A DNA stretch of 64,000 nt from a virus. Lineage: Duplodnaviria > Caudoviricetes. Position numbers and translations under genes: made by a program. Below are positions 3,567 through 55,815 of this stretch, piece after piece. Under the pieces are notes generated by a model. The model was given only the letters and a program-made list of their open reading frames with translations. It made no database searches and was not told the origin of the DNA. The first letter of the stretch is position 1. Each line of letters starts with the position of its first letter. Location of the stretch: IMG/VR virus record IMGVR_UViG_3300042870_001240; one strand, 5' to 3'.

Positions 3567-4106
3567 TTAGATGGTAACATCATCTTTATGAGCAAGAACC
3601 TCTTCCACCCCCTCAATATCCTCTAAATAAGCACAACTAGTTGTATTTACCTTACAATTAAGAACCTCTTCAACCTTCAGTTGGCTATACGCCCATCCTA
3701 CGACAGTTGTGGTTACCTTACAGTTGAGGACCTCTTCCACCTGGCAATCTCCATTAAAATAGCCACACCGCGTTGTATTTACCTTACAGTTGAGGACCTC
3801 TTCCACCACTAGAGCGCGTGCTCGATTTATTACCAGCGTTGTATTTACCTTACAGTTGAGGACCTCTTCCACCCATTCGGACATAATCTTATCAAAATCA
3901 GGAGATTCCAAAGAAAAGAGAACAAAAAAACTCTTAAAGAAATCATATCTCCACCATAACTTACCCTCATTTTCATATTCAAAATACCAATACTTATTAT
4001 CTCTATCGATAAAGTATACACTGTCCTTATAAGAAATTATCTCGACCTTGGATAACTCCTTATAAAGTTTTTTGAATATAATATCTTTTAATCTATCTGA
4101 AACCAT
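3567..4106 (-). CDS. Array-bearing small-protein family member (MVSDRLKD type); C-terminus is a translated repeat-spacer array
   Basis: ATG at 4106 behind TATATTTG; paralog of 9453, 9993 and 20900 genes; repeats VEEVLNCKVNTT every 22 aa. Confidence 0.85.
   Translation of the reverse strand: MVSDRLKDIIFKKLYKELSKVEIISYKDSVYFIDRDNKYWYFEYENEGKLWWRYDFFKSFFVLFSLESPDFDKIMSEWVEEVLNCKVNTTLVINRARALVVEEVLNCKVNTTRCGYFNGDCQVEEVLNCKVTTTVVGWAYSQLKVEEVLNCKVNTTSCAYLEDIEGVEEVLAHKDDVTI
3574..3873 (-). CRISPR. CRISPR-like array A1: four full 36-bp repeats plus one degenerate repeat, four 30-bp spacers
   Basis: Repeats at 3640-3675, 3706-3741, 3772-3807, 3838-3873 and degenerate 3574-3609; sense consensus GGTGGAAGAGGTCCTCAACTGTAAGGTAAATACAAC; unique 30-bp spacers. 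Confidence 0.75.
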
Positions 4107-4154
4107 ATTACAAATATAATAATAATAAATGAAATAAAAAATAAAGAACACATC

Positions 4155-6084: not shown

Positions 6085-7188
6085 ATGAAAAAGTTTAGAG
6101 TACGAATGACTAATGTTTCGACAAGATTAGTTGATGGTGAAACACAAAAATGGCTGACATGTGAGGTGTCACTATCTTCCCTAATAGAAGCAAAAAGAAA
6201 ACTAGGGAAAGAATTATTTTCCGTAAATGTTAGAGGATGTTTATCTAACAGTAAACCAACAAGTCAAGAAAGGAAAAAACCTGTATTCAGAGGTATAATG
6301 AATACAATGGACAAGATAAGAAAAAACCCTGAAAAAGCTTATCTGCAAACTATGGGAAATAATGGTTGTACGATAATGTGTGGTTCTATTGAAAGAATAT
6401 CTGGTGATATCTATGAAATCACATTAACCCATGATTACCATGGAATTGGTAACGGTCAACAAACGATTTATATAACCGAGTGGATTGATACAAATTATCC
6501 AATAAGTAGTGATGTAACCATACTATGTAAAATGGCCATTGGACTTTCAGAGGATGACTGTAACGACATATGTAAGGCAAATAACACAAGTAACAAAATC
6601 GATAAGAAAGATATCAAATCCATAGAGTGGAAAAGAATAAGTATGGAACTTAAAACATTGGGTATAACTTTCAATTATAAAAAAGAAAAAGAAGGTCAAT
6701 ACCATATCGACATCTGTGCTGAAAATTACTATAATATGATTGGGGCATATTTCACAAACAAACCTTGGGTAAACGGCCAAGAAGTGGTCGATAAAATTAA
6801 ACCTAACATCATATCAGGAAAAGAGATGATTGAAATGGATAGGGTAAAGAAAATAATTGATGATTGGTTTGAAACCAATGATAATGAGGTTAAAAAACAT
6901 AGTAATAAAATGGATACTACAAGAATGGGTTATTTAAAGAACATTATGATTTCATTATACACGGATGTTAAGATACAAGCAAGAGTAAAACCATTTATAA
7001 AAAAATACGGAGATGTTAAATTTTTTGAACTAATCTTTAAAGTTGTTATAAACACCATAGAAGAAAACGAAACAACTAAAGTATCGTCAAATTATTTTAA
7101 TAAAAAAACATACGAATTATTAAGTAAATCTATTGAAGTAGAAATTTTAGAATCAGAAATTTTAAAATCAGAAACGGTCTTAGTTTAA
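6085..7188 (+). CDS. AIPR-like (ParB/DndB-related fold) protein
   Basis: NNGCTIMC, GNGQQT and ICKANNTSNKI motifs match the AIPR pattern NNGIT...NGxQT...ATNSQN as recalled. Confidence 0.6.
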   Translation: MKKFRVRMTNVSTRLVDGETQKWLTCEVSLSSLIEAKRKLGKELFSVNVRGCLSNSKPTSQERKKPVFRGIMNTMDKIRKNPEKAYLQTMGNNGCTIMCGSIERISGDIYEITLTHDYHGIGNGQQTIYITEWIDTNYPISSDVTILCKMAIGLSEDDCNDICKANNTSNKIDKKDIKSIEWKRISMELKTLGITFNYKKEKEGQYHIDICAENYYNMIGAYFTNKPWVNGQEVVDKIKPNIISGKEMIEMDRVKKIIDDWFETNDNEVKKHSNKMDTTRMGYLKNIMISLYTDVKIQARVKPFIKKYGDVKFFELIFKVVINTIEENETTKVSSNYFNKKTYELLSKSIEVEILESEILKSETVLV

Positions 7189-9181: not shown

Positions 9182-9452
9182 ATTTGATTATCTCATCTAT
9201 ACAATATTTTTCCACCATAACAATTTACCAATATGTCACCATAACAATGGGGAAATTATATGTAATGACGTATACCTTACTGTTGCACCCTCATATTTAA
9301 TATGTATCTACATATAATGGGGACCTGATATAAATGGGGGAATATGATTATGAAGGAATACCGTAGTGAATGAAATGAACGGGAGGGATGAGTGAGTAAT
9401 TATATTCTCTCATTTATTGTATAACTAAAATATTATTATTATCTTTGTGATT

Positions 9453-9989
9453 ATGGTTAGTGGTAGATTAAAGGATTTGATATTTAAGAAACTGTATAAA
9501 GATTTATCTCATGTAGAAATTATTGAGTATAAGGGTGAGATATGGTTTATTGATAGAAAGGAAAAGTTTTGGTATTTTATATATACTAAGTCTAATGGTC
9601 AGATGTGGTGGAGATATTCTTTCTTTACTCCTTTCTTTCTTCTTTTCTCTTTACCCTCTGATGAATTTACTCACATTCTTTCTTCTTGGGTGGAAGAGGT
9701 CTTAAATTGTAAGGTGACCACAACACTCAAGGTGGCTAATGTTAGGGAAGTTATGGTGGAAGAGGTCTTAAATTGTAAGGTGACTGAAACAGAAACCGTT
9801 ATTAATGGCTACCCCCTATCGGTGGAAGAGGTCCTAAATTGTAGGGTGACTACAACAATGGTGTCTATTGCTTCTTTACCAAAATCGGTGGAAGATGTCC
9901 TAAATTGTAGGGTGACTACAACAATGATAGACAGAGGTATTCCACGTCATGAGGTGGAAGAGGTTTTAAATAATAATATAAATAAATAA
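9453..9989 (+). CDS. Array-bearing small-protein family member (MVSGRLKD type), translated array
   Basis: TATCTTTG upstream; VEEVLNC[KR]VTTT repeats every 22 aa. Confidence 0.85.
   Translation: MVSGRLKDLIFKKLYKDLSHVEIIEYKGEIWFIDRKEKFWYFIYTKSNGQMWWRYSFFTPFFLLFSLPSDEFTHILSSWVEEVLNCKVTTTLKVANVREVMVEEVLNCKVTETETVINGYPLSVEEVLNCRVTTTMVSIASLPKSVEDVLNCRVTTTMIDRGIPRHEVEEVLNNNINK
9689..9970 (+). CRISPR. CRISPR-like array A2: four full 36-bp repeats plus one partial, four 30-bp spacers
   Basis: Repeats at 9689, 9755, 9821, 9887 and partial at 9953; consensus GGTGGAAGAGGTCCTAAATTGTAGGGTGACTACAAC. Confidence 0.75.
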
Positions 9990-9992
9990 GAT

Positions 9993-10688
9993 ATGGTTAG
10001 TGATAGATTAAAGGATTTGATATTTAAGAAACTGTATAAAGATTTATCTCGTGTAGAGATTATTCATTATAAAACTTATATATGGTTTATCGATAGAGAG
10101 GATAAGTGTTGGTATTTCAGGTATGATAAATCTGACGGCACACTCTTATGGAGATATTATTTCTTCATGGATTTTTTTACCCTCTTTACGATGAGTTCCA
10201 TCGAATTTGTTCCCATCATATCTTCTTGGGTGGAACAGGTTATAAATAATAAGGTAACTATAACTCGCAACAAGATGACTTCATTTCCAGACGATATTGA
10301 AGATGCCTTAAATTGTAAAATGGTGGAAGAGGTAATAAATCATAAGGTTTCATTCGACTTAGGATATTCCATTTCTACCCTTTGTGAGGTGGAAGATGTC
10401 CTAAATCATAAGGTAACTAAACCAGATGGTGTCATTGCACTATATAATCCGATTGAAGAGCATCATAAGGTGGGATTAACTTTAGGACCTTCCCTTCCCC
10501 AATATGAAATGGTGGATGAGGTCCTAAATCATAAGGTAACTAAAACAGATGGAGCGATTGCATGGAGCGGTCCGATAGAAGAGGCTCTAAATAATAAGGT
10601 AAATACGACCGAAGATGAAATAGATAACAACATACGTGACCACCTCCTCAACCTTCAGCTGGCTATACGCCCATCCTACGACAGGTGA
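9993..10688 (+). CDS. Array-bearing family member with a degenerate translated array
   Basis: Tandem paralog of the 9453 gene; V[ED]xVLNHKV repeats. Confidence 0.8.
   Translation: MVSDRLKDLIFKKLYKDLSRVEIIHYKTYIWFIDREDKCWYFRYDKSDGTLLWRYYFFMDFFTLFTMSSIEFVPIISSWVEQVINNKVTITRNKMTSFPDDIEDALNCKMVEEVINHKVSFDLGYSISTLCEVEDVLNHKVTKPDGVIALYNPIEEHHKVGLTLGPSLPQYEMVDEVLNHKVTKTDGAIAWSGPIEEALNNKVNTTEDEIDNNIRDHLLNLQLAIRPSYDR
10229..10609 (+). repeat. Degenerate array A3 (eroded 36-bp repeats, internal deletions and a spacer duplication)
   Basis: First repeat 10229-10264, last 10574-10609; two similar DG.IA spacers. Confidence 0.6.
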
Positions 10689-20899: not shown

Positions 20900-21580
20900 T
20901 TATTTTATTGATTCTATTAAAACCCCATTTTGAATGATGTCTTTTGGGAAAAAATCACGCTTTGACAATTCGGTATATTTCACCCCATTTTGAATGGTAT
21001 CTTCAACAAAGGAGTCGTTCAAAAAATTATAGATATTGGCGTGTTTCACCCCAATTTGAATGGTATTTTCAACGACAACGTTTGTAATGAACTCTACTCC
21101 TGTGGTGTTCTTCACACCATTTTGAATGGTATTTTCAACCTCTCTATCAAAATCTTCCGACCAATTATACTCATTAGGAATTTCATTTGTCCACGTATTT
21201 TTAATACCATCTTCAATAACTCTCCCAACAATAGGAATATTACCACCAATAACCCCTTCGGTTTCTTTTATACCGTTTTCAATAATACTAATAACCCCTT
21301 CTTCAAAAACAAACTTATTACCACTAATCGATAGTGGTTTATTCAAAATATTCTTAGTAAACCAATCAGTAATATATTCACTATTCTCAGTCACATTCAA
21401 TGACACAAAATTAAAAACATTATTAAATAATGAGTAATTATACCATAAGACATTCTCTTTAGTATATTCAAAAACCCATCTTTTTTCTTCGGTAAAAATA
21501 AACCACATTGACCCATTGTGATTGTAAATGTCAACACCTTTTAATTCTTTGTTTATTAATTGATTTATTGCTCGTTTCAT
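20900..21580 (-). CDS. Array-bearing small-protein family member, translated array
   Basis: N-terminal ~80 aa align with the MVSDRLKD paralogs; VENTIQNGVKxT repeats. Confidence 0.8.
   Translation of the reverse strand: MKRAINQLINKELKGVDIYNHNGSMWFIFTEEKRWVFEYTKENVLWYNYSLFNNVFNFVSLNVTENSEYITDWFTKNILNKPLSISGNKFVFEEGVISIIENGIKETEGVIGGNIPIVGRVIEDGIKNTWTNEIPNEYNWSEDFDREVENTIQNGVKNTTGVEFITNVVVENTIQIGVKHANIYNFLNDSFVEDTIQNGVKYTELSKRDFFPKDIIQNGVLIESIK
20972..21139 (-). CRISPR. CRISPR-like array A4: three clear 36-bp repeats with two 30-bp spacers, plus degenerate flanking units
   Basis: Repeats at 20972-21007, 21038-21073, 21104-21139; sense GTTGAAAATACCATTCAAAATGGTGTGAAGAACACC. Confidence 0.65.
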
Positions 21581-31605: not shown

Positions 31606-32151
31606 ATGTCAGGAAAGAAATCCATAGAAGATATTATAAAATCGTTAACCAAATTACTTGATTCAATGGTTATTAAAGGTCGAGTTAAGTTTAGAGTTGA
31701 CATTGACCCTTACACAAGTGAGTATTATAATAGACAGGATGAAGAATATACTATCCATTACCCTATCACTTATACATTTACTAATGACCATGCAAAGTAC
31801 TGGGAGGATTCTCCACAGTTTTCTCAAGAATATAATGACCTAATTAATTCAATTGATTTTGATAACCTTTCCGATAAATTGGAAGAGATTCCTAAGTATT
31901 TTTTATTCGGTGAGTCTAGTGAGATAACAATTAGATGGGAACATTATAATACAGACACATATAAACCGTTGTTGGATGCTTTAGGTCTTGAACAAATCCC
32001 TTATGTAACTAAATTTACAATATACCAACCAAACATAAACATAATATTATCTAATGACTACATCGTTGAAAAGGGAGACTTACAAGTAGATTTAGGTTTT
32101 GCTTTTGATAACATAGTAATGTATTCAGACGATATCTCAGGAGACAAATGA
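31606..32151 (+). CDS. Hypothetical protein (181 aa)
   Basis: ATATTTAT at 31594-31601. Confidence 0.7.
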   Translation: MSGKKSIEDIIKSLTKLLDSMVIKGRVKFRVDIDPYTSEYYNRQDEEYTIHYPITYTFTNDHAKYWEDSPQFSQEYNDLINSIDFDNLSDKLEEIPKYFLFGESSEITIRWEHYNTDTYKPLLDALGLEQIPYVTKFTIYQPNINIILSNDYIVEKGDLQVDLGFAFDNIVMYSDDISGDK

Positions 32152-32474
32152 AATATATAATAACAGAAAATAAGTTAAACAATGTCGCGTTAAGTTGGAT
32201 GAATCAAAACTTCAGTCCATACCAGTTAGAAATTTTTGAATCTGAAAAATATCCAAATTCTGTTTTTTTTAGAAAAAATGGAAAAGTTGTGATGCAACAA
32301 GATAAAAAATCTAAGTTTTTTTGGTTTGATTATGATAAAATTTGGTCATTTTTTAAATTGTTTTTTGGTATGCAATACCCACAAATACAAGACGTTCTGA
32401 ACTACTGGTTGGAGGATACTTTCAAATTAGAGGGTTATACACCTAATCCCTACGAATTAACATATACACTTTAG
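32148..32474 (+). CDS. Array-bearing small-protein family member (MKYIITE...YWLEDTFKLEGYTP)
   Basis: Close paralog of the 50295 and 48889 genes; ends inside mini-array A5. Confidence 0.85.
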   Translation: MKYIITENKLNNVALSWMNQNFSPYQLEIFESEKYPNSVFFRKNGKVVMQQDKKSKFFWFDYDKIWSFFKLFFGMQYPQIQDVLNYWLEDTFKLEGYTPNPYELTYTL

Positions 32475-32495
32475 TTGGAGAATACCCTCAAATTA
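32408..32495 (+). CRISPR. Mini-array A5: repeat - 30-bp spacer - truncated repeat
   Basis: GTTGGAGGATACTTTCAAATTAGAGGGTTATACACC (32408-32443), spacer 32444-32473, GTTGGAGAATACCCTCAAATTA. Confidence 0.65.
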
Positions 32496-32507
32496 AAATA
32501 AAAAGAA

Positions 32508-45860: not shown

Positions 45861-45882
45861 ATTATTTATTTTTATTTATTTG

Positions 45883-45955
45883 TAGTCAGGACAGGATTCG
45901 AACCTATACAATAGAGCAATCGCTCAAAGCGTTTAACCAATTTCGCCACCTGACT
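45883..45955 (-). ncRNA. tRNA-like RNA 1 (acceptor, D and T arms; non-canonical 6-nt loop in place of the anticodon loop)
   Basis: AGTCAGG/CCTGACT stem, TGGCGAAATTGGTTAAACGC D arm, ATAGGTTCGAATCCTGT T arm. Confidence 0.7.
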
Positions 45956-46032: not shown

Positions 46033-46138
46033 TGGTAGTCAGGACAGGAATCGAACCTGTAACTTCTTTGTCATACAGAGTGCCATTAGCTGTTATCTCA
46101 ACCTTGATGGTGATACGTTACCACTACGCCACCTGACT
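46033..46138 (-). ncRNA. tRNA-like RNA 2 (encoded CCA; ~54-nt insert replacing the anticodon/variable region)
   Basis: Same acceptor stem; ACAGGTTCGATTCCTGT T arm; ends CCTGACT-A-CCA; TATATTTG at 46168-46175. Confidence 0.7.
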
Positions 46139-48853: not shown

Positions 48854-48955
48854 GGTGTTAGACCCTTCAAATTATAGGTCTCTTCCAACTATAAAGAACG
48901 CAGGTTATTATTTGAAAAAGGTGTTAGACCCTTTAAATTATAGGTCTCTTCCAAC
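48854..48955 (-). CRISPR. Mini-array A6: two 36-bp repeats (1 mismatch) around one 30-bp spacer
   Basis: 48854-48889 and 48920-48955; sense GTTGGAAGAGACCTATAATTT[A/G]AAGGGTCTAACACC. Confidence 0.75.
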
Positions 48956-49197
48956 CAGTATGTTATAATACCCTTCATTTGTTCATATTCCAACCCAAAA
49001 AAGGATTTTAAAAACGACCAAATTTCATTGTAATTTATATAAACATACCCATTTTTTTTATCCTGATAATAATAAAATAATGGTAATCTATCTTCATTAA
49101 CATAAATTGTTCTATCACCCTTAACTATTGGTTTTAAATTACCAAATTTATCGTTAAGCCATGTTATCACGACCTTATCTAATTTATTTTTAATCAT
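48889..49197 (-). CDS. Array-bearing small-protein family member (YWLEETYNLKGLTP)
   Basis: Paralog of 50295 and 32148; stop codon formed at the spacer/repeat junction. Confidence 0.85.
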   Translation of the reverse strand: MIKNKLDKVVITWLNDKFGNLKPIVKGDRTIYVNEDRLPLFYYYQDKKNGYVYINYNEIWSFLKSFFGLEYEQMKGIITYWLEETYNLKGLTPFSNNNLRSL

Positions 49198-49215: not shown

Positions 49216-49641
49216 TTATATAGATTGTTTGGATTCCCTATCTAAATCTCGTAATTTAATAGAATTTCTTTTATCCCATAGTTTTTTACCTTTAGCCAAC
49301 ACAATATCAACCTTCAATAATCCCCTGTCATTCTCATATAATACATGAGGAATGATTGTATATCCCTTAACCAACTCTGATTCAAGTTTTCTTAATTGTT
49401 TTTTCTTCAATAACAATTTTTTATCGGTAGCAATATTATCATTCCCAATTCCTTGGATAAGAACCCCTTTCATATATAACTCCCCATTATTAAAATAACA
49501 GAACGAGTCAGTCATAGAGACTTTCCCTTCTCGGATTCTCTTAACCTCAACACCAGTCAATTTAATACCCGCCAAGAATGTTTCCTCAATAAAATACTCA
49601 AACTTAACTTTTTTATTCTCAATACGAACTTTTATCTTCAT
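49216..49641 (-). CDS. smpB: SsrA-binding protein SmpB
   Basis: ENKK.KFEYFIEETFLAGIKLTGVEVKRIR, KKLLL.KKQLRKL, LAKGKKLWDKR motifs; ATG at 49641 behind TATCTTTG. Confidence 0.92.
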   Translation of the reverse strand: MKIKVRIENKKVKFEYFIEETFLAGIKLTGVEVKRIREGKVSMTDSFCYFNNGELYMKGVLIQGIGNDNIATDKKLLLKKKQLRKLESELVKGYTIIPHVLYENDRGLLKVDIVLAKGKKLWDKRNSIKLRDLDRESKQSI

Positions 49642-49791
49642 AAACACAAAGATAAATATAAAAAACAAAAAACCCTAACAAATTTTTACATTCACCAGGG
49701 TTTAATATTAACCAACTAAGAAAGGGGTCGTTGGGACTATTTAGGTTATAAATATAACAAATTTTTTAAAAAGAAAAAGATATTTATAAAT

Positions 49792-50133
49792 ATGATATTA
49801 AAAATCAACGATAACAAATTTAAAGTGATGGTAATGATGACTCAAAAAGATACTCAAAAGGGTATGATGGGTCGTGACTTTGATTCTAACTTTAATGGTA
49901 TGTTATTTCTAATGGACAAAGGTCCTCACGGTTTTTGGATGAAGGATTGTATTATCCCATTGGATATTATTTTTATTGACGGTAATACAATAACTAAAAT
50001 ACACCATAGTTGTCCTCCATGTAAATCGGAAGACTGTCCTAGTTATGTCGGAACAGGAGATACTATTTTAGAACTTAGAGGCGGTACTTGCGGGGAATTA
50101 AGTATTAAAGAGGGGGATAAGATTCTATACTAA
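49792..50133 (+). CDS. DUF192 family protein
   Basis: GMMGR...GMLF...FWMKDC.IPLDIIFID...LELRGG. Confidence 0.85.
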   Translation: MILKINDNKFKVMVMMTQKDTQKGMMGRDFDSNFNGMLFLMDKGPHGFWMKDCIIPLDIIFIDGNTITKIHHSCPPCKSEDCPSYVGTGDTILELRGGTCGELSIKEGDKILY

Positions 50134-50349
50134 TTTGAGAGTATCCTCCAACTGGATGTAATGGAGCGAATTGCGAAGCGTGGTGTATAACCCTTTAATT
50201 TGAGAGTCTCTTCCAACTAGTCATGCTTTCCGCTGAACCGTCTTTCAGGTGTATAACCCTTTAATTTGAGAGTCTCTTCCAACTACTAACGCATTCAAGA
50301 CTGGAAATGGCTCGGTGTATAACCCTTTAATTTGAGAGTCTCTTCCAAC
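50131..50349 (-). CRISPR. CRISPR-like array A7: three identical 36-bp repeats plus a truncated fourth; spacers 30/30/29 bp
   Basis: 50182-50217, 50248-50283, 50314-50349 identical; sense GTTGGAAGAGACTCTCAAATTAAAGGGTTATACACC. Confidence 0.85.
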
Positions 50350-50609
50350 CAGTAACTCAGAAATTCCTGTATTTCTTGGTATTCCATACCAAAAAACGAT
50401 TCAAAAAATGACCAAATTTCATCATAATCAAACAAAAAATCTTTATTTTTTTTATCCTGCTCCATCACAACTTCTCCATTTTTTTTAAAAAAAATTGAAT
50501 TAGGATATTTTTCAGATTTAACAATTTCTAACTGGTCTAAACCAAAGTTTTTGTTCATCCAACTTAACACGACATTGTTTAACTTATTTTCCGTTATTAT
50601 ATATTTCAT
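50295..50609 (-). CDS. Array-bearing small-protein family member (MKYIITE...YWLEETLKLKGYTP)
   Basis: Final codons are the first repeat of A7. Confidence 0.85.
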   Translation of the reverse strand: MKYIITENKLNNVVLSWMNKNFGLDQLEIVKSEKYPNSIFFKKNGEVVMEQDKKNKDFLFDYDEIWSFFESFFGMEYQEIQEFLSYWLEETLKLKGYTPSHFQS

Positions 50610-53224: not shown

Positions 53225-54091
53225 TTAAACCCCTTCTTCAAAAACTAATTTACTTTGTTTTTTATCATCAACAAATGCTTGTATTCGTTTACGAGATATT
53301 TCACAATAATCAGGACTTAATTCAATCCCAATCCATCTCCTATCTAATATCTCAGCAGCAACACATGACGTTCCACTTCCGTTGAATGGGTCAAGAACAA
53401 TATCATTCTTATAAGATAATATCTTAATCGCCCTTGTAGGGATATCCATTGAGAATGTTGCCTTGGTTAAGGATTTAGTGTCAGCAAAATATTTCCATTG
53501 CCCAAACACCAATTCCATAAAATCTTTTTTATCAATATCCTCATAAACAACTTTTTTCTTAATTGTTCCATCCTCTTGTTCAATATCAGTTGGAACTCCC
53601 TTCCATTGGGGTTCTCCCTTAACAGTCTTAATATGTTTATGTTTGTAGGCTAATATAACACACTCTTTTGGGTTATAAATATAAGGGCTGGATGGACTCA
53701 TCCAACTACCCCAAGCAGTCGTCTTACTTCTATGGGGACTGTCTTCCTCAAGGTCAACGATACCGAAGAACTTATAACCAATTCTTTTCATAACTTGATA
53801 GACTTCAGAACAAAAGAAAATTCTACCACCTTTATCTTGTCTATTTATTTCGTAGGGGATATTTAACGCAATTCTACCATCGTCTTTTAATAACTGATAC
53901 GCTTCAGTTAACCATTCTTTAGTAAATTTTAGATATTCATCAAAATATACATCATCATTATGAACATCATAATTAATCCCAACACCATAAGGACAACTAG
54001 TCACAATTAAGTCAATTGAGTTTATCGGCATTTTTGACATTATGTCAATACAATCACCATTAATAACTTTACCCGTATAATTTTCTATCAT
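53225..54091 (-). CDS. DNA methyltransferase, N4-C/N6-A, beta class
   Basis: IDLIVTSCPY (motif IV variant) near the N-terminus and VLDPFNGSGT (motif I) near the C-terminus. Confidence 0.88.
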   Translation of the reverse strand: MIENYTGKVINGDCIDIMSKMPINSIDLIVTSCPYGVGINYDVHNDDVYFDEYLKFTKEWLTEAYQLLKDDGRIALNIPYEINRQDKGGRIFFCSEVYQVMKRIGYKFFGIVDLEEDSPHRSKTTAWGSWMSPSSPYIYNPKECVILAYKHKHIKTVKGEPQWKGVPTDIEQEDGTIKKKVVYEDIDKKDFMELVFGQWKYFADTKSLTKATFSMDIPTRAIKILSYKNDIVLDPFNGSGTSCVAAEILDRRWIGIELSPDYCEISRKRIQAFVDDKKQSKLVFEEGV

Positions 54092-54696: not shown

Positions 54697-55815
54697 TTAA
54701 TCTTTTTTATATTCGTTTAATAATTCTTCGGTAGTAAGGATTCCATTGTATTTTTTAGCAACCTCATCAAAGTTTTTAACACTAACATTACTATACATGT
54801 TGTGGGTTGTTGCGAGAAGTTCGTTAGCCATATCAATCGTTTCAGAAATAACTTTAACTATGTCATAAGGGTTTGCATTTGATGCTGGTCTTCTATCTTC
54901 AATATAACCTTTCCACTCTTTAGCCGTTGACACAGGAACTCGGATAGATGCTCCTCGGTCACTAATCCCCCAACTGAACTTATCAATTGATTGTGTTTCG
55001 TATTTACCTGTAAGTCTTAGTTCATTATCTGAACCATAAACTTCAATATGTTGATATCTTCTTGATTCCAAAGAATTAAATATTACGTTGAAGTATTCCT
55101 CCCCACCCTTATTTCTCATTATATCTGTCGAAAAGTTTGTGTGTAATCCTGACCCATTCCATTCACCATGTCTAATCGGTTTAGGATGGTATTCAATATA
55201 ATATCCATATTTCTCAGATAGTTTTTCCATTAGATATCTCGACATCCAAAGGTCGTCACCAGCCTTTAATTTACCTTTTGAGAATACTTGATATTCCCAT
55301 TGTCCTAAAGCCACTTCAGCGTTCACACCTGTAATGGTGATTCCCATATTTAAACATAAATCCATGTGCTCTTCAACAATATCTCTACCAACAACATTAG
55401 AACCTACACCGCAATAGTATTTTCCTTGACCTTCAATCAACCCTTCACTATGTCCTAACACTGGTTTGTTTTTACCTTCACGGATAAAATATTCTTGTTC
55501 AAATCCAAACCACATATCATTATCTTCGTCACCTAACTGTGCTCTTCTATTAGTTTCGTGAGGAGTCCCATCAGGATTCATAACCTCACATAAAACGTAT
55601 ATTTTAGATGTGTCAACATTTGTCCAATAAACTCTCACAGGTTTTAAAATACAATCAGAATTATTATCTTCCGCCTGTAGTGTTGATGACCCATCAAAAT
55701 TACATTCAGGAATTTTATGTAATTCACAGTTTTGTTCTTCAACAACTTTAATTTTACTTCTTAAATTTGGTTCAGGCGTATAACCATCAAGCCATATGTA
55801 TTCAATTTTTGTCAT
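54697..55815 (-). CDS. glnII: Glutamine synthetase type II
   Basis: EYIWLDG, FDGSST, GFEQEY, NAEV..GQWEYQ, HPKP...WNGSGLHTNFST, DRGASIRVP, EDRRPASN. Confidence 0.93.
   Translation of the reverse strand: MTKIEYIWLDGYTPEPNLRSKIKVVEEQNCELHKIPECNFDGSSTLQAEDNNSDCILKPVRVYWTNVDTSKIYVLCEVMNPDGTPHETNRRAQLGDEDNDMWFGFEQEYFIREGKNKPVLGHSEGLIEGQGKYYCGVGSNVVGRDIVEEHMDLCLNMGITITGVNAEVALGQWEYQVFSKGKLKAGDDLWMSRYLMEKLSEKYGYYIEYHPKPIRHGEWNGSGLHTNFSTDIMRNKGGEEYFNVIFNSLESRRYQHIEVYGSDNELRLTGKYETQSIDKFSWGISDRGASIRVPVSTAKEWKGYIEDRRPASNANPYDIVKVISETIDMANELLATTHNMYSNVSVKNFDEVAKKYNGILTTEELLNEYKKD

Follow-up and report, generated by a model that had tools for sequence, protein, structure and literature searches.

The 64,000-nt stretch of DNA analyzed here, referred to throughout as the window, belongs to the viral record IMGVR_UViG_3300042870_001240 (Duplodnaviria; Caudoviricetes) and carries, on its minus strand between positions 50131 and 50349, an array of direct repeats and spacers designated A7. 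This array is located at the 3′ end of a small gene (50295..50609, −) that encodes a protein of 104 amino acids (aa) and belongs to a multi-copy phage family; the body of the gene occupies the position of a leader, and its last conserved codons constitute the first repeat. The neighbors of A7 are a DUF192 gene, a DHH-family gene and smpB. The phage was present in lake-water metagenomes of 2020 and 2024, and a genome size of about 300 kb was estimated for its relatives from CheckV completeness.

The full repeat of A7 is a 36-mer that reads GGTGTATAACCCTTTAATTTGAGAGTCTCTTCCAAC on the plus strand and occurs in exactly three copies (50182-50217, 50248-50283 and 50314-50349), when none was expected from 100 shuffles. 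The transcribed and meaningful strand of the array is the minus strand, on which the repeat reads GTTGGAAGAGACTCTCAAATTAAAGGGTTATACACC. In this direction, the gene-proximal repeat 1 (50314..50349), encoding LEETLKLKGYTP, is followed by spacer S1 (50284..50313, 30 nt), repeat 2 (50248..50283), spacer S2 (50218..50247, 30 nt), repeat 3 (50182..50217), spacer S3 (50153..50181, 29 nt) and a truncated and degenerate terminal repeat of 22 nt with two mismatches (50131..50152), giving periods of 66, 66 and 65. Repeats 2 and 3 are the same as repeat 1 according to the exact-copy count, and the DUF192 gene, which runs convergently (49792..50133, +), has its stop codon overlapped by the truncated repeat. 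The three spacers are unrelated to one another, and their guanine-cytosine (GC) content (43, 47 and 48% for S1, S2 and S3, respectively) exceeds that of the local DNA (31–34%). The first-pass annotation of this DNA, made from the letters alone, had described three base-identical 36-mers and a truncated fourth, the same three spacers, their higher GC content and the greater degeneracy of the distal repeat, and all of these observations were confirmed.

The open reading frame (ORF) of the 104-aa gene runs into the array. Repeat 1 corresponds to its last 12 conserved codons, and the TGA stop falls within S1, as had been annotated, so that the tail of the protein, SHFQS*, is read from this spacer. 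Further in-frame stops precede repeats 2 and 3. The earlier description of the repeats as non-coding elements behind the gene was thus correct for repeats 2 and 3 and for the truncated one, which are not translated, but not for repeat 1, which codes for the C-terminus of the protein.

The locus was then compared with its alleles in related phage contigs, using R for a full repeat and Rt for the truncated terminal repeat. The window, taken as the reference, has the structure R-S1-R-S2-R-S3-Rt; the contigs L003, L004 and L005, from three samples, have R-S3-Rt, and L006 has R-Sx-R-S3-Rt, where Sx is a different proximal spacer. The truncated repeat was present in these four contigs, and S3, the oldest spacer, on the trailer side, was common to every allele of the locus. 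The flanks of L003 were 100% identical to the window upstream (1205 nt) and 99.5% identical downstream (3092 nt), the upstream identity of L004 and L005 was also 100%, and that of L006 in the adjacent flanks was 89–93%. The window exceeds L003 by exactly 132 nt, equivalent to two units (S1-R-S2-R) and situated at the gene-proximal end, S1 being the newest spacer. The same polarity was observed in other pairs of loci (L009 versus L025, and L010/L029 versus L007/L024/L027). [quoted passage not shown]

To identify the origin of the spacers, the affiliation of the phage was considered. The nearest relatives of its smpB gene (49216-49668, −; Pfam E = 3e-40) were from Bacteroidota, with about 50% identity, and the SmpB protein was 51% identical to those of Cytophagales and Chitinophagaceae genomes. 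The A7 array was compared with 401 genomes of the order Chitinophagales, to which the Chitinophagaceae genome matched by SmpB belongs, and a single one of them, G160 (2.6 Mb), stood out. S1 matched contig C10 of this genome at 30/30 positions, in antisense orientation, within the gene of an Ig-like surface protein with a type IX secretion system (T9SS) sorting tail (Por_Secre_tail). S2 matched contig C4 at 29/30 positions, in sense orientation, within rpsB (ribosomal protein S2) of the rplM-rpsI-rpsB-tsf cluster. One spacer of a sister array described below and one of a related phage also matched G160 at 30/30 positions and in sense orientation, namely spacer 4 of array A2 (9923-9952; gcvT, contig C15) and the third spacer of the third A6-like array of L006 (arginine deiminase gene, contig C3). 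Diverged copies were detected in sister genomes, at 27/30 positions in G147 for S2 and in G134 for the L006 spacer. A 30/30 match is expected by chance in 2.6 Mb with a frequency of about 1e-11; therefore, these spacers are copies of the chromosome of the G160 species, which is the probable host of the phage. The recent acquisition of foreign DNA suggested in the first-pass annotation was thereby borne out by S1 and S2, which come from two chromosomal genes of G160. The opposite outcome that it had named, invariant spacers derived from duplications of the phage's own DNA, was not found.

The sources of the other spacers were less evident. No convincing source was found in the 401 genomes of the order for S3 or for the proximal spacer of L006; the weak matches in G291, G329 and G330 (E 0.005–0.009 per genome) are no stronger than a search of 401 genomes is expected to give. 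The A1 spacers had no match in G160 or G147 and no convincing one among the 401 genomes, no spacer source was found for array A4, and no spacer of the arrays of more distant relatives (L028, L009 and L010) matched the G160 family. When the A7 and L038 arrays were searched against 50,697 phage records by blastn, only chance-level matches were obtained (E ≥ 0.2), and the 24-nt cores of S1 and S2 had no exact match in IMG/VR. The related phage records G001-G005 gave only repeat-to-repeat matches and one AT-rich 36-nt match regarded as chance. Additionally, one spacer of L048 (3867-3896), from a more distant phage lineage, matched a conserved phage gene present in four copies at 27/30 positions, which indicates that the spacer sources are mixed. 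In the lineage of L046, L047, L048 and L050, the small genes alternate with a family of 177–191 aa (containing DILWLLLRKEFLSEKDLRLFAVW and an Ala/Tyr-rich tail), the source of that spacer.

A7 thus displays general features of a CRISPR array: its full direct repeats are identical and do not vary in length, its unique spacers hardly vary in length, its turnover is polarized, and its spacers have protospacers in other genomes. These results demonstrated that A7 is a CRISPR-type array fused to a phage gene, with recent and polarized gain of fragments of the chromosome of the probable host.

The protein encoded by the fused gene was also analyzed. A protein search gave 198 homologues, and all of them (198/198) end in WLEETLKLKGYTP followed by a hypervariable tail, the common C-terminal motif being W-L-E-E-T-L-K-L-K-G-Y-T-P. 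Variable tails include SHFQS and RFAIRSITSSWRILSN. Even among proteins 96–100% identical, the tails bore no relation to one another. Neither Pfam nor PHROG had a family matching the 104-aa protein. Its N-terminal domain was modeled by AlphaFold with a predicted local distance difference test (pLDDT) score of 90, and this model had no PDB match in Foldseek and no known fold, with a best VIA-align Z of 4.4; its matches in BFVD (predicted viral structures) were solely proteins from uncultured phages that are uncharacterised and differ greatly in length. Among diverged homologues, synonymous codon identity amounted to 0.79 for the repeat, compared with 0.76 for the gene body and 0.81 for the 20 codons that precede the repeat. 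The value for the repeat is close to that of the gene body; therefore, the repeat is conserved as a peptide motif and not as a nucleic-acid signal, and an additional constraint on it at the nucleotide level was not supported. Stop-codon recoding as the cause of the in-frame TAG and TGA codons was set aside informally; the neighboring genes are normal under table 11. In L006 (3700-4780), an A6-type paralogue occurs as a tandem triplicate whose arrays differ in content (2, 1 and 3 spacers), and the family therefore grows by gene duplication besides spacer gain.

A scan for self-similarity at period 66 revealed six further loci in the window. Each occupies the 3′ end of a gene paralogous to the small one, and each repeats the version of the 36 nt proper to that paralogue. 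A6 (48854..48955, −) consists of two repeats and one spacer on a 102-aa paralogue (48889..49197), and A5 (32408..32498, +) of a repeat, a spacer and a truncated repeat on a 108-aa paralogue (32148..32474). The remaining four lie in frame within longer genes: A4 (20972..21139, −), with three repeats, in a 226-aa gene (20900..21580); A3 (10229..10609, +), which is eroded, in gene 9993..10688; A2 (9689..9989, +), with five repeats, in gene 9447..9989; and A1 (3574..3873, −), with four full repeats and a partial one, in gene 3567..4151. In A1, A2, A3 and A4, the frame is open across the whole array, which amounts to a protein repeat of 22 residues (the 66-nt unit equals 22 codons). The phage ORF reads spacer 4 of A2 in the frame that host GcvT also uses (MIDRGIPRH). 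The tail of the A3 gene (10641-10685) is an inverted copy of positions 3664-3708, with two mismatches in about 45 nt, and comprises spacer 3 of A1 and the first 13 nt of the following repeat. A simple inversion is not sufficient to account for this arrangement, which suggests an exchange between oppositely oriented arrays.

In total, the window and 51 related loci yielded 74 arrays, among which there were 92 unique spacers. The spacers measured mostly 30 nt (63 spacers) or 29 nt (18), with a few of 31 nt (3) and 32 nt (5), their mean GC content was 36.7% versus 30% for the loci, and the terminal repeats were degenerate or truncated across the collection. In the subfamily of A5–A7, 38 of 62 spacers from relatives were open in frame versus 31 expected, and the other two frames gave 40 and 31; the spacers of this subfamily are therefore without coding constraint, and most of the protein tails stop within the first spacer or just past it. 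A rule by which spacer ends in TA would create TAG stops was discarded after inspecting 58 spacers of the subfamily, in which the last two positions followed no TA rule and A was only mildly overrepresented at the final base.

The repeats resembled those of type VI-B arrays from Flavobacterium. The A7 and A1 repeats coincided at 21/36 and 22/36 positions, respectively, with the repeats of F. columnare CRISPR-2 and F. branchiophilum (shuffle p ≤ 1e-4), both of which are listed among the 36-nt Flavobacterium repeats in Table 4 of PMC5395568. The similarity to the F. columnare type II-C repeat and to another 36-nt Flavobacterium repeat was weaker, and at chance level for A7. The VI-B locus of F. 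columnare has 36-bp repeats and is transcribed from the leader, and its spacers, including host-derived ones, are acquired through the II-C Cas1 in trans (PMC8092290). A7 shares with it the 36-nt repeat, spacers of 29–30 nt and a leader on the GTTGG side. The F. columnare array lacks a Cas1 proper to it, and no adaptation module lies near A7. In contrast, the A7 repeat ends in ACACC instead of ACAAC, with loss of the terminal complementarity, the array lies in a coding region, and the probable host belongs to Chitinophagales, in 401 genomes of which no such arrays were seen. Neither an effector-sized ORF in the window nor VI-B-type arrays in G160 or the 401 genomes were found, cas13b itself not having been searched. 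Furthermore, the A7 repeat folded no better than shuffled sequences (z = 0.08), 74% of cells paired in the covariation analysis of the central hairpin, with 70% in a slid control, and a reading of the array in the direction of the gene makes just one of the four traced spacers antisense to its host gene, unlike what is expected of VI-B. Given the lack of an effector, the different terminal motif, the absence of a significant fold and this orientation, the A7 repeat is called VI-B-like in ancestry or mimicry, but not a member of a VI-B system. Rfam placed neither CRISPR-DR nor any other family on A7, at gathering thresholds or with E up to 10.

The machinery responsible for the insertions was searched for in the phage, in its relatives and in the host order. 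The largest ORF of the window encodes 590 aa, and no Cas Pfam domain was found in the genes neighboring A7. Of the 401 genomes of the order, 158 had Cas1. G116, which is among the five genomes in the host family and the only one of them with such a locus, contains a type II-C locus (L155:6337-12879) with a 1487-aa Cas9, Cas1 and Cas2, in which the repeat is of 47 nt (GTTGTTTATC...TTCACAAC) and the spacers are of 29–30 nt; none of its spacers matched the window or the related phage loci. In the 30 best-scoring Cas1 loci of the order, most arrays had repeats of 30 nt and spacers of about 36 nt. The spacer length fits the II-C module, and a duplication of 36 bp was not seen in the order, so that only the spacer length agrees with the module of the host family. 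A period of 66 nt equal to that of the phage arrays, with the repeat and spacer lengths swapped, was observed in the Cas1 loci L179-L194 of Chitinophagales.

Taken together, we consider it fairly probable that A7 is a genuine CRISPR-type array on the 3′ end of a small gene, formed by Cas1-Cas2-type capture of host DNA, with a role against host CRISPR that is only guessed. The gene body stands in for the leader, its last 36 nt being the first repeat, and each growth event consists of the exact duplication of the 36-bp repeat with an insert of about 30 bp at the gene-proximal repeat. The fixed length of the duplicated repeat, the insert of about 30 bp, the polarity toward the leader end and the decayed terminal repeat point to the chemistry of a spacer integrase of the Cas1-Cas2 type acting in the infected cell. 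Its substrate would most likely be fragments of the host chromosome under degradation. The enzyme itself would most likely be supplied in trans by the host, a II-C adaptation module existing in the host's family, or else it may be a phage enzyme encoded outside the 64-kb window. Every insertion rewrites the C-terminal tail of the small protein and lengthens the 3′ part of the transcript. As for the role, our best guess, which is speculative, is that these multi-copy leader-repeat look-alikes absorb spacer integration or supply repeat RNA in the course of infection, and in this way hinder the CRISPR immunity of the host instead of serving it.

Several results weigh against this interpretation. 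No cas gene was found in the 64-kb window, part of a genome of about 300 kb, where 20 further ORFs of at least 230 aa have no Cas Pfam domain, and no Cas1 was found in five partial relatives of the phage. G160 has neither Cas1 nor an array of this type, being a metagenome-assembled genome (MAG) that may be incomplete. Duplication of 36 bp is a feature of none of the systems seen in the host order (47-nt II-C repeats; common 30-nt repeats), the 36-nt array pattern GTTG..ACANC gave only single chance hits in the 401 genomes, and the phage repeat signature arranged as an array was found in none of 185,579 species genomes. In addition, the repeat version that is duplicated is in each case that of the paralogue concerned, so the inserter must be either tolerant of sequence or something other than a CRISPR integrase of the host. 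No common protospacer adjacent motif (PAM) or flanking motif accompanies the four protospacers, and three of them are sense to the host gene. Lastly, the spacers of A1, A2 and A4 are all open in frame (10/10, versus about 5 expected), which hints at a role at the protein level. The capture process might be independent of any matching host CRISPR locus and run by an unrecognized phage function or a very permissive integrase, a variant that we regard as unlikely. If it were true, host DNA would be recorded heritably and cumulatively in the phage, and this record would be transcribed and, for some of the paralogues, also translated into cassettes of 10 residues.

Four other explanations were weighed against that of a genuine array. 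The units could be neutral scars of the "neo-CRISPR" kind, arising when the host Cas1-Cas2 mis-integrates host fragments at a sequence resembling a leader and repeat, tolerated at gene ends and useless to the phage. Off-target integration by the type I-E system of Escherichia coli, with duplication of a pseudo-repeat, was reportedly described by Nivala, Shipman and Church in 2018. The origin of the spacers in ordinary housekeeping genes, the lack of both a strand bias toward mRNA targeting (1/4 antisense) and a common PAM, the lack of a nearby cas gene or effector in the window and the stop codons in the A7 spacers, which keep no reading frame, are all consistent with such scars. Nevertheless, the architecture occurs on every member of a multi-copy family (seven loci in 64 kb) and recurs in divergent phage lineages with different repeats, where a degenerate terminal repeat and one or more spacers are never missing; the 36-bp duplication is unlike any array type found in the host order, and A1, A2 and A4 remain open in frame. 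Neutral scarring appears possible, if somewhat doubtful. The open frames lead to a different proposal, that of a cassette writer run by the phage, which would diversify the C-terminal tails of the proteins with 30-bp host fragments, placing 10-residue cassettes between constant modules of 12 residues. Its arguments are the unit of 66 nt, or 22 codons, the ten open spacers of A1, A2 and A4, the shared frame of A2 spacer 4 and host GcvT, the duplication by each paralogue of its own repeat, which behaves as a conserved protein motif with ordinary synonymous drift, and the absence of any bacterial array with the phage repeat signature in the species genomes searched. A7 would then be a copy whose last insertions happened to carry stop codons. 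However, the spacers of A5–A7 are not depleted in stops and most of their tails end within the first spacer or just after it, no candidate enzyme was found, and known CRISPR adaptation produces exactly this geometry. This proposal seems to us improbable.

A third explanation is that A7 works as a guide array, the transcript of the gene entering the array and being cut into CRISPR RNAs (crRNAs) for a Cas13b-like or Cas9-like effector, of the host or of the phage, directed against host genes such as rpsB, a use also proposed for arrays of huge phages that target their hosts. The significant similarity of the repeat to the VI-B repeats of Flavobacterium, with the same 36/30 geometry and the same orientation from leader to repeat (PMC5395568; PMC8092290), argues for it, as do the compact arrays without Cas1, Cas2 or Cas4 of huge phages, some of whose spacers are directed against host genes of transcription and translation (PMC7162821), one of the targets here being a ribosomal protein gene. 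On the other side stand the lack of an effector-sized ORF in the window and of VI-B-type arrays in the 401 genomes, the sense orientation to host mRNA of three of the four spacers, the fold value given above, which is at the level of shuffles, the hairpin pairing, to which the slid control comes near, and the fact that minimal arrays end in a truncated repeat unable to form the full 3′ handle. Such a function is judged unlikely. Finally, an ordinary tandem repeat of the protein, produced by duplication and divergence and mistaken for an array, would account for a period that is a multiple of three, for the conserved peptide motif and for the several sister arrays that are read through. It is not compatible with base-identical repeats that enclose mutually unrelated inserts, with alleles that differ by whole units at one end only or with the in-frame stops of A7 ahead of repeats 2 and 3, and the identity of the inserts to bacterial chromosomal genes excludes it almost completely.

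With respect to the rest of the window, no transfer-messenger RNA (tmRNA) was found in it. A 103-nt element at 46036-46138 (−) matched the Rfam tRNA model with 47 bits and was not called by ARAGORN; it adjoins a tRNA-Gln (45882-45955) and may represent either a tRNA-like RNA or a tRNA that carries a long insert. Other genes encode an AIPR (abortive-infection-type) domain protein (6085-7188, +), a glutamine-synthetase-like protein (54697-55815, −) and an N6/N4 DNA methylase (53225-54091, −).

In CRISPR adaptation as it is understood, the bacterium writes the DNA of the invader into its array; here the direction is the reverse, and bacterial DNA is written into a virus at the ends of protein genes. 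If a host integrase acts, phage genomes would serve as sinks or decoys of adaptation, an untried form of counter-defense, and exact spacer matches would also give direct links between virus and host for uncultured jumbo phages. If the phage acts by itself, this would be a new DNA-capture system and possibly a new route of protein diversification. The finding also bears on a question left open for natural VI-B arrays, in which there is an unexplained mismatch of repeat length where the only Cas1-Cas2 is that of a II-C system with longer repeats (PMC8092290), namely by what means spacers enter 36-nt arrays in those Bacteroidota that have no Cas1-Cas2 except that of loci with 47-nt repeats. In the literature, no published description was found of the fusion of such arrays with coding genes or of phage genes that capture host DNA, and standard surveys would miss gene-fused arrays because ORFs are masked in them (PMC10651486).

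Among known systems, neo-CRISPR integration resembles the present case in that inserts of spacer size enter a site that is not a CRISPR locus and the adjacent sequence is duplicated as a new repeat. It differs in that here a whole gene family is affected, in several lineages and in phage DNA, with a duplicated length unlike that of the arrays found in the host order (47/30 nt). RNA anti-CRISPRs (Racr), viral solitary repeat units and mini-arrays have been surveyed (PMC10651486; see also the preprint 10.1101/2024.10.29.618823), and the survey, in which ORFs were masked, found none for type VI (PMC10651486). Both Racr and the arrays described here are repeat-like elements on viral genomes without cas genes, and a role against host CRISPR is plausible for both. 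Racr, however, are non-coding copies of host repeats with at least 90% identity, whereas here the first repeat belongs to a coding sequence, a host repeat that matches is not known (the only matches of G160 to the A7 array query were the two spacers, without a near-copy of the repeat) and spacers are acquired. A further likeness is offered by the compact arrays of huge phages, which are without Cas1, Cas2 and Cas4, often without an effector, and include some spacers from host chromosomes (Al-Shayeb et al., 2020; PMC7162821). A7 is likewise a short array borne by a jumbo phage with no nearby adaptation module, and its spacers match the chromosome of the probable host, including a translation gene. 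The arrays of huge phages share their repeats with their hosts, and for A7 no bacterial array of the same signature was found. In contrast to them, A7 is fused to a coding gene whose conserved C-terminus is the first repeat, at least seven arrays are present in 64 kb, one per paralogue and each with its own version of the repeat, and the growth of A7 is visible between nearly identical strains.

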